IMG/VR virus record: IMGVR_UViG_3300021964_000099
Coordinates: 1-52,274 of that record
Reading direction: 5' to 3' (one strand)
DNA length: 52,274 bases
From: a virus
Lineage: Duplodnaviria; Caudoviricetes
Position numbers and translations under genes: made by a program. The stretch's first letter is position 1, and each line of letters begins with the position of its first letter. Below, one piece after another: positions 11,807 to 20,829 of this stretch. Below the pieces are notes generated by a model. The model searched no databases. It saw only the letters and a program-made list of their open reading frames with translations, and was not told the DNA's origin.

Positions 11807-12096
11807 TATGTTTTTCTTGATGCTCCCCAACCTTTGGTTGTTAGCATTTTATTTTTATTCTTGTGGACAGATCCACCGCCCATATATCCTTTTACTTCTC
11901 CGCCTTTAGCATAGTTTCCTTTACCACCTTTACCGGGAATAACTACATCTCTTTTAGGTTTAATTTTAAGTTTAGGTTTAATAGGATTTTCTTGACTATA
12001 TTCCTTTTCAGCAATTCTATAATCACTTTCCATTCTTTGTTTATCAGTTGTACTTTCATACCACTTTTTATATTCTTCCGGCGTCATCATATTCAT
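11806..12096 (-). CDS. Small basic protein with YAKGG/YMGGG motifs
   Basis: 96 aa, coupled to TerL stop. Confidence 0.65.
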   Translation of the reverse strand: MNMMTPEEYKKWYESTTDKQRMESDYRIAEKEYSQENPIKPKLKIKPKRDVVIPGKGGKGNYAKGGEVKGYMGGGSVHKNKNKMLTTKGWGASRKT

Positions 12097-13538
12097 TAGT
12101 AGTACTCCCTTGGTTCCGTGATCCGTGGTTCATCGTAGTAGTCATCGGGGAGTTTGACAAAGTTGCCTTGACGGTATCGCATGAGCGCTTGTGTTGTTGA
12201 GTCAACATAATCGTCATGGTCGCCAAAAGGAAAAGCTGCACACTCCTCTATAACGTCCTGTGCCCATCGTTCATCCGGACACCATACTTGGCCCGATTCA
12301 AACATAGGGGCTACTGAGTTTACCCGAACATGTTTATCGTTCCCTCGACTTGGTGTAAAGTTTACAACAGGTATACCTGCTGATCTTAACTCATCTGTCA
12401 ACGGAAGTCCAGAAGCTTTTGCTTCTACAATAACTGTTTCCGGTTCCCAGTATTTATATTTATCCATAGCAATTTTTTTGAGCTCTGTAAACTCCCATCT
12501 TCCTTTTTCTGCATCTAAAAGTATTATTTGAGGGTTTCCCTTACTTGGGTGACTGAACACGCCCCATGTAGTAATCGCGCTATAGTCCGCTGTTTCTTTT
12601 TTACTGAACGCTGTATCATAACTTTGGATGACATGAATCAAGTCCGGTACTTCATCTTCTTCCCATATTTGCCACCACTCACGTTTCAATATAGAGCCCT
12701 CTTCGGCGGTAGGATTTTGCTGCCACTGGGCTTGCCACTTTTGTTCTGTTAAGGAAGCACGGGTCGCGGTCAATGAATCAATGTCCCAGTACTCTGGCCA
12801 AATAGGTTTATTACTTGGTAATATCGCCGGGAACTCAATAAGCTCCCACTGGTCTGCCTTGGGTTCTTTTGCTTGAGCGTCAATCAATCTGCCTGTCAAA
12901 TCTTTCACGGACCACCGGGTCATAACAATAACGATAGCACCGCCCGGCTGTAGACGTTGTCTAGGTCCAGAGGTATACCATTCATACGCACTGTCAAAAG
13001 CTGTTTCGGATAGGGCGTCTTGCTCGGAGTGCGGGTCATCAATGATCAATAAGTCTGCACCACGGCCCGTGATACTTGAACCAACGCCCGCTGCAAAATA
13101 CTCGCCGCCTTTGTTTGTTTCCCAACGGCCTGCCGCTTTACTGTCCGCGGATATCGAAACTTGGTCAAAGACTTGCTGGTAGACTTGACTGTCAATAAGG
13201 TTCTTCATCTTACGTCCAAACCTTACGGCAAGTTCTGTATTGTGTGTGGTTTGAATTATCTTGAGTGTAGGTTTATTGCCAACTAACCAAGATGGAAATA
13301 AGAAAGAAGCAAACTCTGACTTTGTATGTCTAGGTGGCATATTGACAATCAAACGCTTGATTTTACCATCCCGTATGTCCTCAAATTTTTTTGCAATTTT
13401 TTTGTGATGATAACCGGAGACAAAGTCTGGCCAAACATGTCTGACAAAAGGTATGAAGCCTTTTTCAGCAGCATCTAGCTTTTTTAAATGTTCTTGAATT
13501 AGTTGTTCTTGAAGTTGAACTTCAGTTTGAGAAACCAT
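12096..13538 (-). CDS. terL: Terminase large subunit
   Basis: Walker A-like NMPPRHTKS, Walker B LLIIDDP, VMTRW coupling motif, RNase H nuclease YDTA...FPFGDHDDYVD. Confidence 0.95.
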   Translation of the reverse strand: MVSQTEVQLQEQLIQEHLKKLDAAEKGFIPFVRHVWPDFVSGYHHKKIAKKFEDIRDGKIKRLIVNMPPRHTKSEFASFLFPSWLVGNKPTLKIIQTTHNTELAVRFGRKMKNLIDSQVYQQVFDQVSISADSKAAGRWETNKGGEYFAAGVGSSITGRGADLLIIDDPHSEQDALSETAFDSAYEWYTSGPRQRLQPGGAIVIVMTRWSVKDLTGRLIDAQAKEPKADQWELIEFPAILPSNKPIWPEYWDIDSLTATRASLTEQKWQAQWQQNPTAEEGSILKREWWQIWEEDEVPDLIHVIQSYDTAFSKKETADYSAITTWGVFSHPSKGNPQIILLDAEKGRWEFTELKKIAMDKYKYWEPETVIVEAKASGLPLTDELRSAGIPVVNFTPSRGNDKHVRVNSVAPMFESGQVWCPDERWAQDVIEECAAFPFGDHDDYVDSTTQALMRYRQGNFVKLPDDYYDEPRITEPREYY

Positions 13539-13761
13539 TATGAAAAATTTTATATAATATTTTTATGGGATAATCAATATTTTCATTCGTACAGATTTAG
13601 GGGTGTGGGTATGTCTGGATTAGTGTTACGCGCAACTATGTAGGAGTCCCATTATACTATTTAGGGGGGCCCCCGAAGGGGGTGCGACCTTTTGCCATAC
13701 CATATGTAGTATGCACCAAGATCCTATCTACTAGATATAGTACCCCCCGAAGGGGGGCGAG

Positions 13762-13770
13762 TTATCCACA
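13762..13770 (+). promoter_or_regulatory. DnaA box
   Basis: Perfect TTATCCACA. Confidence 0.55.
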
Positions 13771-13875
13771 GCCACTAGATATGGTACACGGACCGCGAAG
13801 CGGGCCACAAGATGTAGTATGTCCAGACCAAAAAAAACACCCCCCGAAGGGGGTGCGACACTATGTCACATTGAC

Positions 13876-14052
13876 TTAGTTTATATAGAGATCCTTATCT
13901 TGCCAATAAAATTTAGAAGAATCATAGTCATACTTATTTAAGACAAGAAGCAAATTAGATTTAGTAACTTGAATATATGCGCCATCTTCTTCGCTAATCA
14001 TTACCCAAGCAAAAACCATGTCAGCTTTTTTAATCATTTGTTTCACGGTCAT
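13876..14052 (-). CDS. Small early hypothetical protein embedded in the repeat array
   Basis: AGAAAGGA RBS before ATG at 14052 (MTVKQ...). Confidence 0.6.
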   Translation of the reverse strand: MTVKQMIKKADMVFAWVMISEEDGAYIQVTKSNLLLVLNKYDYDSSKFYWQDKDLYIN

Positions 14053-14137
14053 ATTATCCTTTCTGTTTTTCATATCCTATCTTTATAGGATAATATAAGA
14101 TGCGTAAACTATATAATTATCGTAACTTATAATTAAC

Positions 14138-14146
14138 TGTGGATAA
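14138..14146 (-). promoter_or_regulatory. DnaA box
   Basis: TGTGGATAA, the reverse complement of TTATCCACA. Confidence 0.55.
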
Positions 14147-14438
14147 CTTTATTTATACCAGACCTAGTACCCCCCGAAGGGGGGCTGCGACAATTGGTCA
14201 CATTGACACAATATGTGGTACGTGGAACGCGGAGCGTGGCACAAGATGTAGTATGCCCCCGAAGGGGGCTGCGACGTTATGTCACATTGACACAAGATAT
14301 AGATCCCCCGAAGGGGGTGCGACATATTGTCACATACTAGATGTAGTAGGTCAACGGATCATGGACATACCACCAGTAGTACCCCGAAGGGGTGCGACAA
14401 TTTGTCACATTGACATTTTGATTGATCTATGATCGCGG

Positions 14439-14831
14439 TTATTTCTTCGCGGTTAAAAAATCTAATAATAGATGATATGATCGCGGTTCAAATTCTAAGG
14501 AACATGGATAATCAAAACCATTTTTTAAGAGTTCCCGCCCTTTGTCACCGTCGTATAGTTTTATGATCTTGCGTCGCGGTGCTTGGACAATATAAAAGTT
14601 ATTAGGATTATTTGAAAAGTTCTTATAATTCCAAGATATTTGTAAGGGGCTAATATTAATTCTATTTTGTTTTATTATTGTTTTACACTCTAACCAGAAA
14701 GAAAAACCATTATAAACGCCGTATAAATCGGGTATTCCCCCGCCGTGTCTGTTTTCAATTCTTGACCAGAATACCTGTTTTAATTCTCTAAATATCTGTT
14801 TATAGAAAAGCGTTTCGGGTTTTGTAGACAT
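14439..14831 (-). CDS. VRR-NUC/Holliday junction resolvase-like PD-(D/E)XK nuclease
   Basis: E..F...RIEN..G.GIPD...FWLECK...SPLQ..W. Confidence 0.75.
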   Translation of the reverse strand: MSTKPETLFYKQIFRELKQVFWSRIENRHGGGIPDLYGVYNGFSFWLECKTIIKQNRINISPLQISWNYKNFSNNPNNFYIVQAPRRKIIKLYDGDKGRELLKNGFDYPCSLEFEPRSYHLLLDFLTAKK

Positions 14832-14861
14832 AAAAAAACCCGCTAATTATAGCGGGCTTTT
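14832..14861. terminator. Bidirectional intrinsic terminator
   Basis: A7-CCCGCTA-N-TAGCGGG-CTTTT. Confidence 0.6.
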
Positions 14862-14881
14862 GTAGATTGTAAAAAGATTAA

Positions 14882-15181
14882 TTAGAAGTTTTGTATTATT
14901 AATCTTTCAGTTCCAACGACGGGAATTATAGAAGTGTTGTTTTCTAAATCTTGAATAGTTTCAATAGAGTTATAATTTTCTATTATTTCTTGAAGGTTTT
15001 CATATTCTGAATATTCGCAAGCAAAAGCGACGGGATCAAAATTAAATTCTGTGCCTTGATCTTCTTCTAAGTCTACCAAATAATCATATAGACTTGAAAG
15101 CCCTTCAATAGAAAAATTATTCTTATATTGAGAATTTAGAAACCAATTTCTAAAATAATAAGTATCAATAGTATTTTTCAT
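14882..15181 (-). CDS. Acidic early hypothetical protein
   Basis: 99 aa, NFS.EGL..LYDYL..LEE..G...FDPVA..CEYSEY; own promoter and AGAAAGGA RBS. Confidence 0.7.
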   Translation of the reverse strand: MKNTIDTYYFRNWFLNSQYKNNFSIEGLSSLYDYLVDLEEDQGTEFNFDPVAFACEYSEYENLQEIIENYNSIETIQDLENNTSIIPVVGTERLIIQNF

Positions 15182-15238
15182 ATTATTATTATCCTTTCTT
15201 AATATGTTTATATCAAAATATAGGATTTTCTCAAGCGT

Positions 15239-15279
15239 AAAAAAACCCCTGTTATAAGGTCACATTATAACAAGGGTTA
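15239..15279 (-). terminator. Intrinsic terminator after the DUF932-like gene
   Basis: Imperfect stem CCC(T)TGTTATAA...TTATAACAGGGG followed by T7 on the - strand. Confidence 0.55.
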
Positions 15280-15304
15280 TTAATTAAACCGTGATAAACT
15301 TATT

Positions 15305-16354
15305 TTATACGGCTAGTTCTAAGGCTGTATTCATAGCATTAGTTTTAATATTACCTTTTCCATTAGTGAAAAAGTTATTTTTTAAACGGCTTGACACTTG
15401 ATCAACACCGCCCCTTAAATGATCTTCATTATAAGTTACACAATTAAACGCTTTCCAATAAGTGTCTTTTCTTGCGTGATTGCCTGTATTTTGTAACTTA
15501 AAAGTTTTACCATTAGTTTCTATAGTATCGTGAAAAACCCCATAACATCTTTTAATATTGGTAATGTTTGAGCCTTCTAGATCATTCAATGAATTATATT
15601 CCATTGATGATTTTTGAAAGTCACCCAATAGTTTTGGATTATAAACAAGAATAAAATATTTCAATAAATCGCTTTCTTTTATCTGTTTATTGTCAAGGGT
15701 TTTTGCTTGTTCTGAATATTCTTGATTGCTTTTAAGAGCCGTATCAATTTTGGATTTTACCAAGTTTTCAAATTCAGTTGAAAATTCTATTCTATGGCTA
15801 ATTCCTATTTTAAATTGGCTGTTATCTTTTAAAGCATTCATAAAAGTATTAGAACACCACACAGAAATATTAGTTGTCAAAATAGATGACTTGTCACGCC
15901 CTGTATGAAAGTTATTAAACATTATATAAGACTTTACAACATCATCGCCAATATTAAACTGACCGTTTGTTTTTGCTAAGAAAGTGACATATTTATCTCT
16001 ATCGTAGCTAAAAGCATGTTCAAATTTGATACCTGTATTTCTAGCAACATGATCGCCAATTCTAGCGATCTGATCATTTTGCATAGGGTGATAGCTATCT
16101 GTTAAACCAGACACTAAAACTTCTTGATCATCTTTTACTAAAGAAAAAAACTTATCACTTTTTACTAATTCATTAGCAATAGTATTTCCACCTTTAGCAA
16201 ATAATACGGGTTTCATTTCAACATTCCAATCTAAATTGGCATTGTTCATAAGTTGAGAACAATTTAAATTTTGATCAACAGCGTTAAATTGGTTAAGCCC
16301 TTTTCCTGTTAAATCTAAAAGGCTTGACCACTCATAATTTTTTACTTCTTTCAT
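15305..16354 (-). CDS. DUF932 family phage/plasmid protein
   Basis: A.LDW.V...Y.PMQN...N.H.G......T.ISVWC.NT...I.H...T.WKAFN.VT...DH pattern; start at 16354 after RBS. Confidence 0.7.
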   Translation of the reverse strand: MKEVKNYEWSSLLDLTGKGLNQFNAVDQNLNCSQLMNNANLDWNVEMKPVLFAKGGNTIANELVKSDKFFSLVKDDQEVLVSGLTDSYHPMQNDQIARIGDHVARNTGIKFEHAFSYDRDKYVTFLAKTNGQFNIGDDVVKSYIMFNNFHTGRDKSSILTTNISVWCSNTFMNALKDNSQFKIGISHRIEFSTEFENLVKSKIDTALKSNQEYSEQAKTLDNKQIKESDLLKYFILVYNPKLLGDFQKSSMEYNSLNDLEGSNITNIKRCYGVFHDTIETNGKTFKLQNTGNHARKDTYWKAFNCVTYNEDHLRGGVDQVSSRLKNNFFTNGKGNIKTNAMNTALELAV

Positions 16355-16427
16355 AAAATTACTTCTTTCTGTGACCATGAAAATATCTTTATAGGATTTT
16401 ATAGGATAATGCAAGCGTTAAATTAAT

Positions 16428-16457
16428 ATAGCCCCGACGAATTCGGGGCTATTTTTA
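16428..16457. terminator. Intrinsic terminator hairpin
   Basis: ATAGCCCCGA-N-TCGGGGCTAT-TTTT. Confidence 0.55.
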
Positions 16458-16552
16458 CGATTGATATTAAAGGAAATAATTATTTTTAGCTTTCAACCGT
16501 AAAACCTTTTTTTGGTAAGTCGCCGTTATTTATAGCCGTTTGTATAACTAGT

Positions 16553-17257
16553 TCAGACATCAAGCACAAACCCCGAATAATCATTTTTAGCTTTACCTTT
16601 AGCAACCAAACCCGCTATAATATTGTGACCGTCTAAAAATCTAAGATCATTTTGATCTGCATTAATAACTTTGTAACCGTTAAATTTTCTAGGCAAATCT
16701 TTTCTAAATACTGCTGATATATTGCCACCTTTTTTTAGAATATCAAAAGCTTGTTTTTTATTATCTTCATTTAAACTATATGTAAGATGATAATTTCTAG
16801 GAAGTTGACCATTAACAAATTTTAACGCCCTTTTATAAATCTTTGTGTAGTCATACCATTGAATACTTTTATATTCCTCAATTAAACCTGTATTTTCCCA
16901 TGATATATCGGAAGTTCCATTTAATCTGATACACGGTGTTAAATTTTTTGCTTTAGCTTTTACAATAAATGCGTCTATTTCTTTTCTTAATTGATCTAAA
17001 AAGGTTTTTCTTTCTTGTATATACCACCTAGTTTTATTGATACGACCTTGTTTAACACTATTAAAAGCACCATGACCCGCCGTATACAAACACGCCTTTT
17101 TGCAACCTTCACTAGCCATAGAACAAACATTAAAACCAGATTGAGTTGAAGGGGCTAAGTATAATATAGCCGTGATAAAACCGTATTTTTGACCTTTTAC
17201 AGTTTTTGCGTTGTTATCGATATTAAGTAATTTTTTTGATTTTACGAATTCTAACAT
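16553..17257 (-). CDS. Gp88-like Cys-cluster (radical-SAM-like) phage protein
   Basis: NVC..AS.GC...CL..AG.G, RLNGTSDI.W, YDYTK, NYHLTYS, DLRFLD, GL.AKG.A motifs. Confidence 0.7.
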   Translation of the reverse strand: MLEFVKSKKLLNIDNNAKTVKGQKYGFITAILYLAPSTQSGFNVCSMASEGCKKACLYTAGHGAFNSVKQGRINKTRWYIQERKTFLDQLRKEIDAFIVKAKAKNLTPCIRLNGTSDISWENTGLIEEYKSIQWYDYTKIYKRALKFVNGQLPRNYHLTYSLNEDNKKQAFDILKKGGNISAVFRKDLPRKFNGYKVINADQNDLRFLDGHNIIAGLVAKGKAKNDYSGFVLDV

Positions 17258-17378
17258 TTTTATTCTTTCTCTTTTTCATTTTACCTGTAATACCTTTGCC
17301 ACGATCACTATAAACATTTTGCGTATAATAGTAATCGGGGCTTTTAGTATCTTTGCCAAATGGATAATTACTAATCAT
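17223..17378 (-). CDS. Small basic hypothetical protein
   Basis: ORF track; probable start MISNY at 17378. Confidence 0.4.
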   Translation of the reverse strand: MISNYPFGKDTKSPDYYYTQNVYSDRGKGITGKMKKRKNKNVRIRKIKKIT

Positions 17379-17454
17379 AAATATCCTATTAACATGGGAG
17401 TAAATAAAAAACAAATATTAATTACTAAAACTATTAAACAAAATTTCTTAACGG

Positions 17455-17643
17455 TCATAATTCCTCTAATATTTTTTCAATGCCATTAAAAAGGTCTTGA
17501 CCTTTTTCTGTATTCATAGTTCCTTTGTTTTTGTCGTCGTCAATAAAAAATTTATCTCTTTCGAAACCGTTTAAATATTCCATAAAAAGAAAAAATATTT
17601 CGTCTGCTGTTTGAAATACAGCGTCGGGAGATAATTTACTCAT
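17455..17643 (-). CDS. Hypothetical early protein
   Basis: 62 aa, ATGA overlap with upstream gene. Confidence 0.6.
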   Translation of the reverse strand: MSKLSPDAVFQTADEIFFLFMEYLNGFERDKFFIDDDKNKGTMNTEKGQDLFNGIEKILEEL

Positions 17644-17915
17644 TTGTTTACAACCTCGCTTATATCTTCAACTCTATCCCTAATACCTCTTAGACTATCA
17701 TTGATATCTTGACGGTCTGAATATTTTCTTGAATATTGATCATCATCTAAATAATTATTTAATATTCTGATTGCGTGGGTTAAATGTAAATCTAAAATTT
17801 TAACATTATAACCTTTTGATTTTGAAAAATGAACGGTGTCAAATTCTAAAACGTCGTAAGGGATAGCCCTATCCTCAACTATTTTTTGTATCTCTAATAA
17901 ATCTTTTAGTTTCAT
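17640..17915 (-). CDS. Hypothetical early protein
   Basis: 91 aa, AGAAAGGA RBS. Confidence 0.65.
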   Translation of the reverse strand: MKLKDLLEIQKIVEDRAIPYDVLEFDTVHFSKSKGYNVKILDLHLTHAIRILNNYLDDDQYSRKYSDRQDINDSLRGIRDRVEDISEVVNK

Positions 17916-18136
17916 TGTTATCCTTTCTAATTTTGGTAAGTATCAGTTTTGCTGTGGAAACGGCTTAGTAGCCCAGTATTATTCAGCTTTCTTCCTGTAT
18001 TTTTCTTCCTTCAACTGATACTTATTTATCCTATTATCATGGGAGAAGAATTTAGTCAAGTCTTTTTTTACTTCATCAAAACTAAACTTTTCTACTTTGA
18101 TATTATTATCACGGTCACGGTATACTCTAGTTATAG

Positions 18137-18418
18137 TCATTTTATTAAACACCCATTTTCAAAAAAGTATTTTGCATTTTTATCAATGCTCTCTTTTATT
18201 GTTTTGTATTTATTCACGGTGTCTTTATCACAAGACCAACAAAGAGATATTTTATATAAATCATCAACAGGATAATCTAACAATTTTTTTAAAAAATTAA
18301 TTAATGTTTTTTCATTTCGTAGACTTTCTTTTGGAAGGGAACAATCAAACCAATCTTGATCATGATTGTTAAAAGAGGCTATAACATTTAATTTTAAATC
18401 TTTTATTGTATTATTCAT
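18137..18418 (-). CDS. Hypothetical early protein
   Basis: 93 aa, ATGA overlap with the GcrA-like gene. Confidence 0.6.
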   Translation of the reverse strand: MNNTIKDLKLNVIASFNNHDQDWFDCSLPKESLRNEKTLINFLKKLLDYPVDDLYKISLCWSCDKDTVNKYKTIKESIDKNAKYFFENGCLIK

Positions 18419-18618
18419 AATATTGCTCTTTCTTTTTTTCTCGTATACTTTGAGAATGGGTCGGGTGTATATCCGTTCATAACTTTCTCACGGTAAAATT
18501 GTCCTATCACAGAATTTTTTGATCTATGCAACATTTTCCCAACGGTTGCGTAAGAATGTTTTTTTAATAATTGTCTTGCTAATTCTGTTTCATTTTCTGT
18601 CCATTTTTTTCTTTTCAT
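18415..18618 (-). CDS. GcrA-like N-terminal HTH protein
   Basis: WTE.E......L....SY..VG..L..SKNSVIG..YR resembles the GcrA N-terminus WTDERV...S...IA..LG.SRNAVIGK.HR. Confidence 0.6.
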   Translation of the reverse strand: MKRKKWTENETELARQLLKKHSYATVGKMLHRSKNSVIGQFYREKVMNGYTPDPFSKYTRKKERAIL

Positions 18619-18852
18619 TCTATCCCTTTCTCTTGCGACATTATGTCACGTTGACAGTTATTTAGTACAGGACTTATCCGAATAACTCCGTCGCCTGTAC
18701 AATTTGTCGACTTGCCGTTTTTATAGTAGTTGCAATACGACTACTCTTGTTGATAGACAAGATAAAGCTAGTCAAACGGATAAAACAGTCTATCTTTGTT
18801 TTTTCGAAAATCCCTGCTTTCTTTATCTACTTATCCCATTAAATAATATAAA

Positions 18853-18864
18853 TTGACATGTCAA
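18853..18864. promoter_or_regulatory. Back-to-back -35 boxes at the divergence point of early genes
   Basis: Palindrome TTGACA-TGTCAA; genes run leftward below 18620 and rightward above 18900. Confidence 0.5.
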
Positions 18865-18901
18865 TAACAAAATGATAAAAAATAAAAAAGAAAGGAAAAC
18901 T

Positions 18902-19099
18902 ATGAATAGATCAGAAGTAATTAATTCATATGTAGAAGAATTAGACTTATACAAAGAATATCGTCACGCTTACGATAAAGCAACAGAACTAGAATTTTTT
19001 GATAAGCAACAAGAAGCAGATTATTATTATGAATATGCACAACAATTAAAAAAGAAAATTGACAATGGAGAAACCATTCTTTACAAAGTTAATTTTTAG
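18902..19099 (+). CDS. Hypothetical early protein
   Basis: AGAAAGGA RBS then ATG at 18902. Confidence 0.65.
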   Translation: MNRSEVINSYVEELDLYKEYRHAYDKATELEFFDKQQEADYYYEYAQQLKKKIDNGETILYKVNF

Positions 19100-19110
19100 A
19101 AAGGAAGAAA

Positions 19111-19443
19111 ATGAAAATTGAAGAGATAGATAAAAAGTTAAAAGATATTGAAAGTAAATATCACAATGGTCAAAATGCTACATCTGTTGATATAGCTGAT
19201 TGGTGGTCTAAAGAAGATCAAAAAGAATATAAAAGATTATTAAAATTAAAAGAAAGGAAACCTATGAAGAAATTTAGAGTTACTGTTTGGGAAGAATGCA
19301 CATGGGAAAAAATAATTGAAGCAGAAGATGAGGGGCAAGCAGAGGCAAAAGCCTATGAAGAAATATCAGAAACAGGTTATGATAATTGGGAAATAGGTAA
19401 TCACGGTACAAATGATATTACAGATATAGAGGAGATAAAATGA
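19111..19443 (+). CDS. Hypothetical protein with internal in-frame RBS+ATG at 19264
   Basis: 110 aa; AGAAAGGA precedes both 19111 and 19264. Confidence 0.6.
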   Translation: MKIEEIDKKLKDIESKYHNGQNATSVDIADWWSKEDQKEYKRLLKLKERKPMKKFRVTVWEECTWEKIIEAEDEGQAEAKAYEEISETGYDNWEIGNHGTNDITDIEEIK

Positions 19444-19580
19444 CACTAGAAGAATTATATTGGTGGAGAGTTGAGAGACTATGGACTATGTATAACAGCA
19501 TTACAAACGATGAAGTTTATAAGTCTATGTGGGAAAGAAAATTAAAAGAATTATTACTGAGGGGGTTTCGTGGACAATGA
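19440..19580 (+). CDS. Small hypothetical protein (46 aa; not in ORF track)
   Basis: MTLEELYWWRVERLW...; GGAG RBS, ATGA overlap. Confidence 0.55.
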   Translation: MTLEELYWWRVERLWTMYNSITNDEVYKSMWERKLKELLLRGFRGQ

Positions 19581-19764
19581 TTTTGAATTACCAGATTACT
19601 ATAATACAAGTAAACCAAAAGAAGAAAAGCAAGATTTAGTTAAGAGAAAATGCTTTGCTTGTAATAAAGAAAAAGCTATGGGCAAGTTTGAGAGATATTG
19701 TAGTGATAGTTGCAGATCAAGAGCTACAAAGAATTATCAAGCACCAAACAGTATACGGTGGTAA
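19570..19764 (+). CDS. Small Zn-finger protein
   Basis: RKCFAC...RYCSDSC. Confidence 0.6.
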   Translation: MDNDFELPDYYNTSKPKEEKQDLVKRKCFACNKEKAMGKFERYCSDSCRSRATKNYQAPNSIRW

Positions 19765-19814
19765 AATGTTTGTTTTTATTTTTTTTAAAGTTTTTTTATG
19801 GTTAGCTATTTTAG

Positions 19815-20315
19815 TTATTCTGCTTCTTCTATCTCTTTGATCTCTTTGATCTCTACACCGATAGCTTCACCGTTGATAACATTATGATCTCTAATCTCTT
19901 TGAGTTTAGCTTCAAGTTCTGGTCTAGTCATGTTATCAAGTGAGGCTGTCACAACTTCTTTACGATCAATATAAAAACCCGCAAGTTGACCGCGACGATA
20001 TTCGGCATTTATTGCAGGCCCCATTTGTCCATTAGTTACAGCGATATCACGCAACCGTGACAATTCTCTAGAGTGTTTTACAAAATCTAACTTACTAGCT
20101 TCTGCATATTCACGCTGTAGATTTTCTATAGCTTCTACAACTTTAGGGAAATACTTGGGATTTCTTAGATTACAAGCCTGTGTGACAGCAGATTTCTCTG
20201 AATAACCCGCCTGTCTTGCACATTCTGTCTGTGTAAGTCTTCCGTTTTCTTTGACAAATATTTCTACAAAGGCTCTTTGTTTAGGTGTTAGCTCACCATT
20301 TCTAGTCTTAGGCAT
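19815..20315 (-). CDS. terS: Terminase small subunit
   Basis: LTPKQRAFV......N...TQ..CAR.AGYS..SA...A..L HTH pattern of TerS, followed by helical oligomerisation region. Confidence 0.75.
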   Translation of the reverse strand: MPKTRNGELTPKQRAFVEIFVKENGRLTQTECARQAGYSEKSAVTQACNLRNPKYFPKVVEAIENLQREYAEASKLDFVKHSRELSRLRDIAVTNGQMGPAINAEYRRGQLAGFYIDRKEVVTASLDNMTRPELEAKLKEIRDHNVINGEAIGVEIKEIKEIEEAE

Positions 20316-20416
20316 TTTTTCATTTTAATACACTTTATCATTTCTGTATAGTATTATTTCATTCAATATTATAATATTAAATATTAAATTGCATTCAAAA
20401 AAGACATATGGTGAGA

Positions 20417-20581
20417 GTTACGTTTGGTTACGTATAGGTTACGTGGTCAAAGTAACGATATTATTGTTATATTTCAATGAATTATTGCTATGGTTACGTG
20501 GTTACGTCATATTTGTAAAAATAAAAATTATTTTTTTTTATTTTAAAATAAAATTACTATACAGAGTGAAAGTTATCCACA
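20417..20581. repeat. GTTACGT iteron cluster + AT-rich tract + DnaA box (candidate origin or pac region)
   Basis: GTTACGT at 20417, 20427, 20438, 20493, 20501; inverted GTAAC at 20452; AT-rich 20509-20560; TTATCCACA at 20573. Confidence 0.6.
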
Positions 20582-20648
20582 ACTTTTAACATTTAATCTT
20601 ATTTAGTTCTTTATTATCCCATGTATTAGTTTATTAATATAATTAAAT

Positions 20649-20829
20649 GAGGATGTTGCAACATTCTCGGAGTATGGCTGAACAACTGTAACAAGGTAGT
20701 AAGGCACAGTTCTCACAAAGTATGGTCGAATGACTGAGAGTGTGGGGGTTGGTACTGAAGTACTGGTTAATCCATATCAGATTGACTTGTCGGGAAAAGG
20801 TTGGGGGTAGTCAAAGAATCCCCCTACTC
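20649..20829 (+). ncRNA. Candidate multi-stem structured RNA (~180 nt)
   Basis: Follows TATAAT at 20638; at least six stems with G-U pairs on the + strand; ends before the RBS of 20851. Confidence 0.55.

Follow-up and report, generated by a model that had tools for sequence, protein, structure and literature searches.

A GANTC-free segment between the terminase genes of a marine podovirus related to pelagiphage HTVC023P

The viral contig IMGVR_UViG_3300021964_000099, analysed here over its whole length (the window, 52274 bp in one contig), contains between its two terminase genes a 6.9-kb island from which one short word, GANTC, is missing altogether. It is the word methylated by CcrM and recognised by HinfI-type restriction enzymes. 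The absence is real, goes beyond what composition and codon usage explain, and is bounded sharply on both sides. It recurs in related contigs, where the gain of new sites is suppressed, and the segment begins at a non-coding border with an anatomy like that of the first-step-transfer region of phage T5. What clears a single segment of a word that the rest of the genome retains? The explanation that we favour, giving it slightly less than an even chance, invokes a GANTC-specific host nuclease, which would select against sites in the DNA that enters the cell, or is expressed, first.

Absence of GANTC and of other words

A computed scan finds 92 GANTC and 111 CCGG sites in the 52274 bases of the window. 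GANTC sites lie at 13919 and 20816 with none between them, which is exactly the gap that a first-pass annotation of this DNA had described. We define the island as positions 13924-20815 (6892 bp, G+C 30.9%) and take expectations from its own composition. Against the observed zero, 19.5 (mononucleotide), 18.7 (first-order Markov) or 16.7 (second-order Markov) sites are expected, in good agreement with the roughly 15-20 estimated in the annotation; its proposed comparison with a Markov background yields no near-expected frequency and places the gap far beyond chance. Among 136 word families of the form xxNxx, GANTC is the top outlier relative to island composition (P 5.5e-8; next 6.6e-4). Both kinds of centre are affected: GAATC/GATTC occurs 0 times versus 13.0-13.7 expected, and GACTC/GAGTC 0 times versus about 3.7-5.0 (by subtraction). 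Nor does the choice of amino acids account for the gap: a shuffle of synonymous codons across the 5058 coding bp of the 14 island genes yields 8.9 +/- 2.1 GANTC with a minimum of 2, and not one of 1000 shuffles reaches zero. Each of the 15 further families that combine G, A, T and C around a free centre is found 9-31 times in the island. GANTC here is rarer than a composition- and codon-aware expectation, which is one mark of restriction-site avoidance.

Outside the island the word is mildly low, with 79 sites in genes versus 103 +/- 7 by codon shuffle and a density of 2.0/kb versus 2.4 in cultured relatives. The window is not depleted as a whole; depletion is confined to the 6.9-kb segment. 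The change at its borders is abrupt: GANTC stands at 13644 and 13919 on the left, both inside the border array described below, and four times within 500 bp to the right of 20815.

The first-pass annotation had counted a coinciding CCGG gap as an added sign of depletion. Its figures are accurate, with sites at 13414 and 21115, none between, and exactly 35 in the first 13.4 kb, but the gap adds little. Local composition predicts 3.9-8.7 CCGG in the island and the codon shuffle only 2.6 (P 0.06), and a dozen G+C-rich words (CGNAC, GCNGC, CCATC, GGAC and others) likewise have their longest gap there in a scan that ignores local composition, so that we read the CCGG gap mainly as an effect of low G+C. 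The contrast also looks larger partly because CCGG is in excess outside the island (103 in genes versus 58 +/- 6 by codon shuffle). Half of the sites outside are CCCGG/CCGGG (53 versus about 21), and the excess is probably the counterpart of a total absence of CCWGG.

This absence belongs to a broader pattern, in which YCAGG/CCTGR is missing in both orientations from the whole window: CCAGG, TCAGG, CCTGG and CCTGA occur 0 times versus about 16, 28, 20 and 35 expected, whereas ACAGG (30), GCAGG (25), CCTGC (44) and CCTGT (66) reach or exceed their expected numbers. In the genes outside the island, codon shuffling predicts 34 CCWGG and 57 TCAGG/CCTGA and none occurs; within the island, TCAGG/CCTGA occurs 0 times versus 4.8 (P 0.002). 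YCAGG/CCTGR is also absent or nearly so in the related loci L009, L010, L014, L017, L019, L021 and L090-L094, with one copy each in L010 and L014. The cultured Pelagibacter phages HTVC023P and HTVC027P and the related 023Pt_psg01 avoid neither CCWGG nor YCAGG/CCTGR. The pattern looks like a whole-genome escape from one or two restriction enzymes. 023Pt_psg01 has an avoided word of its own, as one of 23 xxNxx control words composed of G, A, T and C occurs only twice outside its terS-terL interval (median 152).

Conservation of the gap and a cold spot at the GP88-family gene

Five syntenic IMG/VR contigs, L090-L094, are 87-95% identical to the window in most aligned blocks. Their island parts, 5-6.6 kb long, contain 1, 1, 1, 1 and 3 GANTC, and control words occur 4-41 times in them. 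In L090 and L091 the single site lies in a stretch that does not align to the window, and L090 keeps the border site at 20816. The same parts are free of CCGG, except for one site in L094, and of CCWGG and TCAGG/CCTGA. Across 34.9 kb of island columns aligned between the window and nine relatives (6-26% divergence, the pairs not being independent), 5 GANTC sites are private to a relative and 0 to the window, compared with 18-63 and 13-60, respectively, for 15 control families. This deficit of new sites speaks for continuing selection rather than inheritance alone. When loci are anchored on terL, the large-terminase gene (13 loci with a terL identity of 85% or more and no less than 2.5 kb of upstream sequence, L017/L019 and L032/L034 being near-duplicates), GANTC sums to 120 versus 266.6 expected upstream of terL and to 139 versus 186.6 from terL onward. 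Gene by gene, DUF932 copies in eight relatives contain 1 GANTC versus 23.3 expected and GP88 copies in five relatives 0 versus 9.2; the terS block is less clean (8 versus 14.1).

The cold spot centres on the GP88-family gene. Homologues at 71-97% amino acid identity were found at 80 IMG/VR loci, 74 of which had a usable full match. Together these copies contain 3 GANTC in 51.5 kb, and 71 of them contain none. A within-gene codon shuffle, which underestimates where the codon pool of a gene already avoids the word, predicts 79.8 sites, and control words average 127. Relative to control words, GANTC stands at 0.18 in the GP88 kilobase, at 0.35-0.45 over the two kilobases that follow on either side (0.35-0.57 on most sides out to 4 kb) and at 0.7-1.0 farther than about 6 kb away. 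Exceptions are the copy in pelagiphage Bylgja, with 1 site, and that of a Xanthomonas phage, which has 3 and is at expectation. In Mesorhizobium phage Lo5R7ANS (L171 1-5546) the first 5.5 kb, which include a GP88 homologue, are GANTC-free at about 60% G+C.

What might the GP88-family protein do? With 4817 clusters at E <= 0.001 the family is a large one; it has invariant cysteines C45, C52 and C56 and conserved RLNGTSD, DYTK and NYHLTFS blocks. PF17338 is the sole Pfam match of the window's protein at E up to 10, with no match to a Radical_SAM (S-adenosylmethionine) profile, and the invariant cysteines are spaced Cx6Cx3C, which is not the CX3CX2C of radical-SAM enzymes. Sequence comparison with solved structures gave no match. 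An AlphaFold model from 107 sequences is of high confidence (predicted local distance difference test, pLDDT, 95; predicted template modelling score 0.90), and Foldseek matched it to nothing at E <= 0.001. With VIA-align the first 22 matches are all radical-SAM enzymes, including a radical-SAM methyltransferase, pyruvate formate-lyase activase, NifB, lipoyl synthase, spore photoproduct lyase, QueE and viperin, at Z of only 4.7-6.7 and a root-mean-square deviation of 4.0-5.8 over 149-173 residues. The predicted fold is accordingly nearest to radical-SAM enzymes, in a Z range that can reflect a common arrangement. DNA methylase genes stand beside GP88 in HTVC309P, S42-C7 and Caulobacter phage Sansa (two); among seven IMG/VR loci scanned they occur in L141 (two) and L165 (one), with none near GP88 in the other five or in the window. 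GP88 domains are also fused into proteins of 399-2105 residues (P0020, P0027, P0135, P0028), one of which, P0027, also carries Methyltransf_23, and in T7-like pelagiphages GP88 lies between the terminase and RNA polymerase genes, at the early end. Methylase neighbours, fusion and early-region position make a role in early DNA or nucleotide modification a lead rather than a finding.

Anatomy of the island and of the phage genome

The island has a lower G+C content than the DNA on either side (about 37-43%). Its block of small genes is flanked by terL and a terS-like gene, as the first-pass annotation had placed them (Table 1), and the orientation of its open reading frames (ORFs) fits two divergent units, for which promoters are consensus matches only.

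Table 1. Features in and around the GANTC-free island of the window (aa, amino acids; HTH, helix-turn-helix)
Feature	Position	Strand	Remarks
Large terminase (terL), left flank	12096..13538	-	4 GANTC, three at positions kept in most relatives
Left border, about 900 bp	13540..14438	.	At most one doubtful 65-aa ORF (13876-14073, -)
G+C-rich hairpin, six copies	within 13540..14438		CCCCCGAAGGGGG type
Exact DnaA box	13762..13770	+	TTATCCACA
Intrinsic-terminator-like hairpin and T run	13837..13856	-	Consensus scan only; downstream of leftward unit
TGCGAC-N5-GTCACA palindrome, five exact copies	13854, 14186, 14270, 14318, 14393		In left border
GANTC-free, CCGG-free low-G+C island	13924..20815	.	Word scans and composition
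Exact DnaA box	14138..14146	-
130-aa protein, PD...ExK-like motif	14439..14831	-	phrog_2165; motif by eye, no Pfam hit
Leftward unit, HTH/Myb-like to 130-aa protein	18618 to 14439	-
Very acidic 99-aa protein	14882..15181	-	Isoelectric point 4.05; 18 D+E versus 4 K+R
DUF932 protein	15305..16414	-	PF06067, 63.1 bits versus cut-off 23
GP88-family protein	16553..17257	-	PF17338, 161.4 bits versus cut-off 24.4; three invariant Cys
Start of leftward unit	17455..18618	-	67-aa HTH/Myb-like (18415-18618), 93 aa, 91 aa, acidic 62 aa
TGCGAC-N5-GTCACA palindrome, sixth copy	18634..18650	+	1 mismatch; just upstream of leftward unit
Rightward unit, four small genes	18872..19764	+	75, 110, 46, 64 aa; divergent from leftward unit
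terS-like protein	19815..20315	-	N-terminal 80 residues match Terminase_2 (PF03592, 34.6 bits versus cut-off 26.1, residues 9-88 only)
Exact DnaA box	20573..20581	+	Near island right border

The left border is an array of hairpins, palindromes and DnaA boxes. The TGCGAC-N5-GTCACA palindrome stands at both ends of the leftward unit, its six copies comparing with 1.8 matches (up to 2 mismatches) in shuffled sequence; the copies are putative sites of a phage regulator, which may be the 67-residue HTH protein encoded beside the sixth. Exact DnaA boxes number four in the window versus 0.6-0.7 expected, and three of them are at the island borders. An exact box is also found in L090, L093, L095 and L096, and in L090 and L093 alignment coordinates place it at the site corresponding to the one at 20573. 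Border arrays with DnaA boxes recur in L007, L008, L009, L016, L021, L022, L091 and L092, and the hairpin array is absent from HTVC023P, HTVC027P and 023Pt_psg01. The contigs of relatives also tend to end at the island borders (13540-14700 and 20200-20700): of 31 terL-anchored contigs (identity 84% or higher), 16 stop no more than 1.1 kb upstream of terL, and four of the five island contigs, L091, L092, L093 and L094, end at window positions 20230, 20572, 20707 and 20409. Repeats or strain variation could explain this as well as physical ends.

As for the individual proteins, the 130-residue protein is, judged by its motif, a possible small nuclease, with weak relatives in the same interval of HTVC027P, HTVC023P and 023Pt_psg01. 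The acidic 99-residue protein matched only viral hypothetical clusters in a protein atlas, and no Pfam or NCBIfam family. The DUF932 protein falls below the TIGR03299 (NCBIfam) cut-off (87.6 versus 110.7); its relatives start at the ATG at 16378, giving 357 residues, and its predicted structure (pLDDT 69.7) has mixed VIA-align matches (best Z 5.9), from which no function can be drawn. The small genes at the start of the leftward unit lack a homologue in most of the relatives' loci compared.

PHROGs and Pfam scans of the whole window reveal a podovirus-type gene set (family-A DNA polymerase, primase, helicases, portal, major head protein, ejection proteins, GroES, terL and the terS-like gene); genes for RNA polymerase and DNA methylase are absent. 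The large terminase shares 61-66% identity with those of 023Pt_psg01, HTVC027P, HTVC023P and DSL-LC04, and by these sequence criteria the contig is a marine podovirus related to the HTVC023P-type pelagiphages, described in the literature as the most abundant known ocean phage group. IMG/VR holds many relatives closer to it than the cultured HTVC023P, HTVC027P and 023Pt_psg01; no near-identical phage record was found. The contig ends (1-700 and 51861-52274) split one tail-fibre-like gene, the halves of which fall in different frames when joined, indicating a nearly complete, unclosed phage genome with little sequence missing. The window has no terminal repeat, which says nothing of the physical ends, as a collapsed long terminal repeat would assemble as one copy; equally uninformative are the records of HTVC023P, HTVC027P and 023Pt_psg01, which have no terminal repeat and begin at a start codon. 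The 20 sequencing runs bearing the sequence are labelled estuary, marine or soil metagenome or carry no label, and matches in genome collections amounted to five short contigs from archaeal, Verrucomicrobia-type and Vibrio assemblies, probably mis-binned and uninformative as to the host.

Explanations for the site-free island

The anatomy of the island is reminiscent of phage T5. In T5-like phages, type I and type II restriction succeeds only with sites in the first-step-transfer region, and in T5 and BF23 this region comprises inversely oriented pre-early units and a long non-coding border that carries DnaA boxes and repeats, both direct and inverted (PMC10644984; bioRxiv 10.1101/866236). The island likewise makes up about a tenth of the genome and consists of small genes without known function, whose reading frames are oriented as two inverse units would be; it has a long non-coding border with repeats and DnaA boxes (13540-14438), which relatives keep, and it lacks a restriction-type site that is present elsewhere. 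In contrast to T5, the window is an HTVC023P-type podovirus of at least 52 kb, PHROGs and Pfam searches found no relative of A1, A2 or dmp, and a terS-like gene lies inside the segment. By analogy, then, the island appears to match the T5 anatomy point for point, save for the terminal position, which is putative, and the lack of T5 gene homologues, and it is this likeness that makes us favour a nuclease acting on first-exposed DNA. The original proposal of a leading segment is supported in part: the GANTC absence holds up, selection maintains it in relatives, and the anatomy is like that of T5/BF23; the CCGG argument falls away.

In T7, the leading class I genes are transcribed by the host and include the protection gene 0.3 (ocr), made before the bulk of the DNA is exposed. 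GP88 homologues sit at the corresponding early end of T7-like pelagiphages, but the window phage differs in lacking an RNA polymerase gene, and no Ocr-like protein was recognised in it, the acidic 99-residue protein being no more than a candidate. The third point of comparison is the set of pelagiphages depleted genome-wide. According to Seong et al. 2022 (PMC9516812), GANTC is methylated throughout the Pelagibacter genome, clear genome-wide depletion of the word affects about half of 33 pelagiphages, and one Pelagibacter genome has a GANTC-poor prophage region. These phages share with the window the word, the ecological phage group and the puzzle of what in the host drives the depletion; they differ in that depletion in the window is limited to one sharply bounded segment. 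The connection to CcrM made in the first-pass annotation is reasonable in view of this methylation and of the many depleted pelagiphages.

We propose that the island is the early host-takeover module of a sub-lineage of HTVC023P-type marine podoviruses, and that a GANTC-recognising host nuclease would keep it site-free. Selection would act only on DNA that is exposed, or needs to be expressed, before phage-made protection is in place, and this limitation would explain why sites were removed from the island alone when the other 45 kb keeps 92. One island gene would then protect the rest of the genome, the GP88-family protein being the best candidate and the acidic 99-residue protein the second. 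The first entry or action of the island, the host nuclease and the protective gene are all three things that we infer. In support, the window-wide absence of CCWGG and TCAGG/CCTGA suggests that this lineage removes words under restriction-like pressure, and PMC12753301 reports early or early-to-middle expression of HTVC027P gp30, gp33 and gp34, which lie in the terS-terL interval.

Several observations weigh against this proposal. In PMC9516812, the authors' SAR11 genomes yielded no restriction-modification system, and the cause of depletion was left open. HTVC023P, HTVC027P and 023Pt_psg01 share the terS-to-terL layout, yet a general depletion of this interval in the HTVC023P type had to be rejected (2.1-2.3 GANTC/kb versus about 2.4 elsewhere in the three genomes), so the GANTC-free feature belongs to one sub-lineage and not to the position as such. 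HTVC023P gp26 (L005 15305-16003), a distant GP88 homologue at 39% identity, even contains 7 GANTC versus 2.4 by codon shuffle. A general depletion of T7-like pelagiphage early regions was not seen either, at about 1.3, 0.9 and 1.9/kb versus 1.6, 1.4 and 1.7 genome-wide, and such phages can have equally long gaps elsewhere, as in Bylgja (L089, 14115-20967, 6.9 kb). The island includes a terS-like gene, which is not expected to be early, and the 3.3 kb to the right of 20.8 kb, DNA that would enter early if packaging were headful from a pac site near terS, contain 8 GANTC. Lastly, the PHROGs, Pfam and NCBIfam matches of the island proteins include no homologue of known anti-restriction proteins or of T5 A1, A2 or dmp. 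A gap of 5.0 kb is present in HTVC309P (L088, 33692-38723); this one and that of Bylgja cover the region from tail fibre to terminase, a different variable region.

A more specific version of the proposal is two-stage, T5-like delivery or deployment of the genome, in which the site-free 6.9-kb leading module, stopped at the array of DnaA boxes and hairpins, would make a radical-SAM-like GP88 enzyme, in other genomes a frequent partner of DNA methylases, that guards the remaining DNA from a nuclease partnered with CcrM; we regard it as quite unlikely in this full form.

Could the island simply have been assembled from cassettes that were site-free on arrival? Mobile cassettes (GP88, DUF932 and others) from GANTC-avoiding marine phages would then carry this state regardless of position or entry time, an explanation that we think unlikely but regard as the main alternative. 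The island is indeed mosaic: its DUF932 and GP88 blocks are 65-90% identical to those of relatives that are far closer in terL, and for 17.25-18.45 kb most loci lack a homologue. The window's GP88 is nearer to the copies of T7-like pelagiphages (63-72% identity) than to that of HTVC023P (39%), GP88 and DUF932 also occur together on another backbone (L098), the 71 GANTC-free copies among 74 contigs come from mixed backbones, and the GANTC sites of relatives lie mainly in inserted, non-homologous cassettes. The depletion of about half of 33 pelagiphage genomes (PMC9516812) also fits this explanation. However, none of the three cultured or fosmid phages checked as carriers of the closest GP88 proved GANTC-free genome-wide; their depletion is only about two-fold (58, 64 and 68 sites). 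Moreover, parts of the island that are non-coding or peculiar to the lineage contain no site either, its borders are sharp (the 500 bp next to it on the right already contain 4 sites), and the donors' own avoidance would still need a reason. The island also shares the window-wide avoidance of TCAGG/CCTGA, which argues that it evolved under the pressures of this lineage.

A constraint from regulation or replication we hold to be decidedly improbable. The island and its array of DnaA boxes and palindromes would be an origin or early control region from which GANTC is excluded against CcrM methylation and GcrA interference. The excess of DnaA boxes in the window, three of them at the island borders, their recurrence in the arrays of relatives and the six operator-like palindromes at both ends of the leftward unit speak for this, as does the link of GANTC methylation to the cell cycle in Pelagibacter, reported in PMC9516812. 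Known methylation control, however, uses few promoter sites and not synonymous removal over 5 kb of coding sequence (no search for precedents was made), and the sites at 13644 and 13919 lie inside the array itself. Composition and chance alone, which fit CCGG with its codon-shuffle P of 0.06 and its company of G+C-rich words, are barely credible for GANTC, where the P value, the 1000 shuffles, the control words and the repeated absence in relatives refute them. The weight that remains we leave to causes that have not occurred to us.

Finally, we would like to place the nuclease proposal and the island itself in the context of what is known of pelagiphages. Whole-genome GANTC depletion had been described before (PMC9516812), with neither a mechanism nor a known SAR11 restriction system; a limited literature search found no description of region-limited depletion or of a GP88 function. 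A bounded and conserved GANTC-free segment, maintained by selection, turns the question into one of when or where during infection, and it comes with named gene candidates, GP88, DUF932 and the acidic 99-residue protein. As a sequence signature, the cold spot at GP88 in 74 contigs is simple enough to help find early anti-defence modules among uncultured phages. If the T5-like reading is true, staged genome delivery and site-free leading DNA would extend to an abundant group of marine podoviruses. Should the two-stage version with GP88 hold as well, SAR11-type hosts would restrict phage at GANTC after all, and GP88, with its several thousand clusters and its early-region position in the T7-like pelagiphages checked, would be a widespread anti-restriction enzyme.

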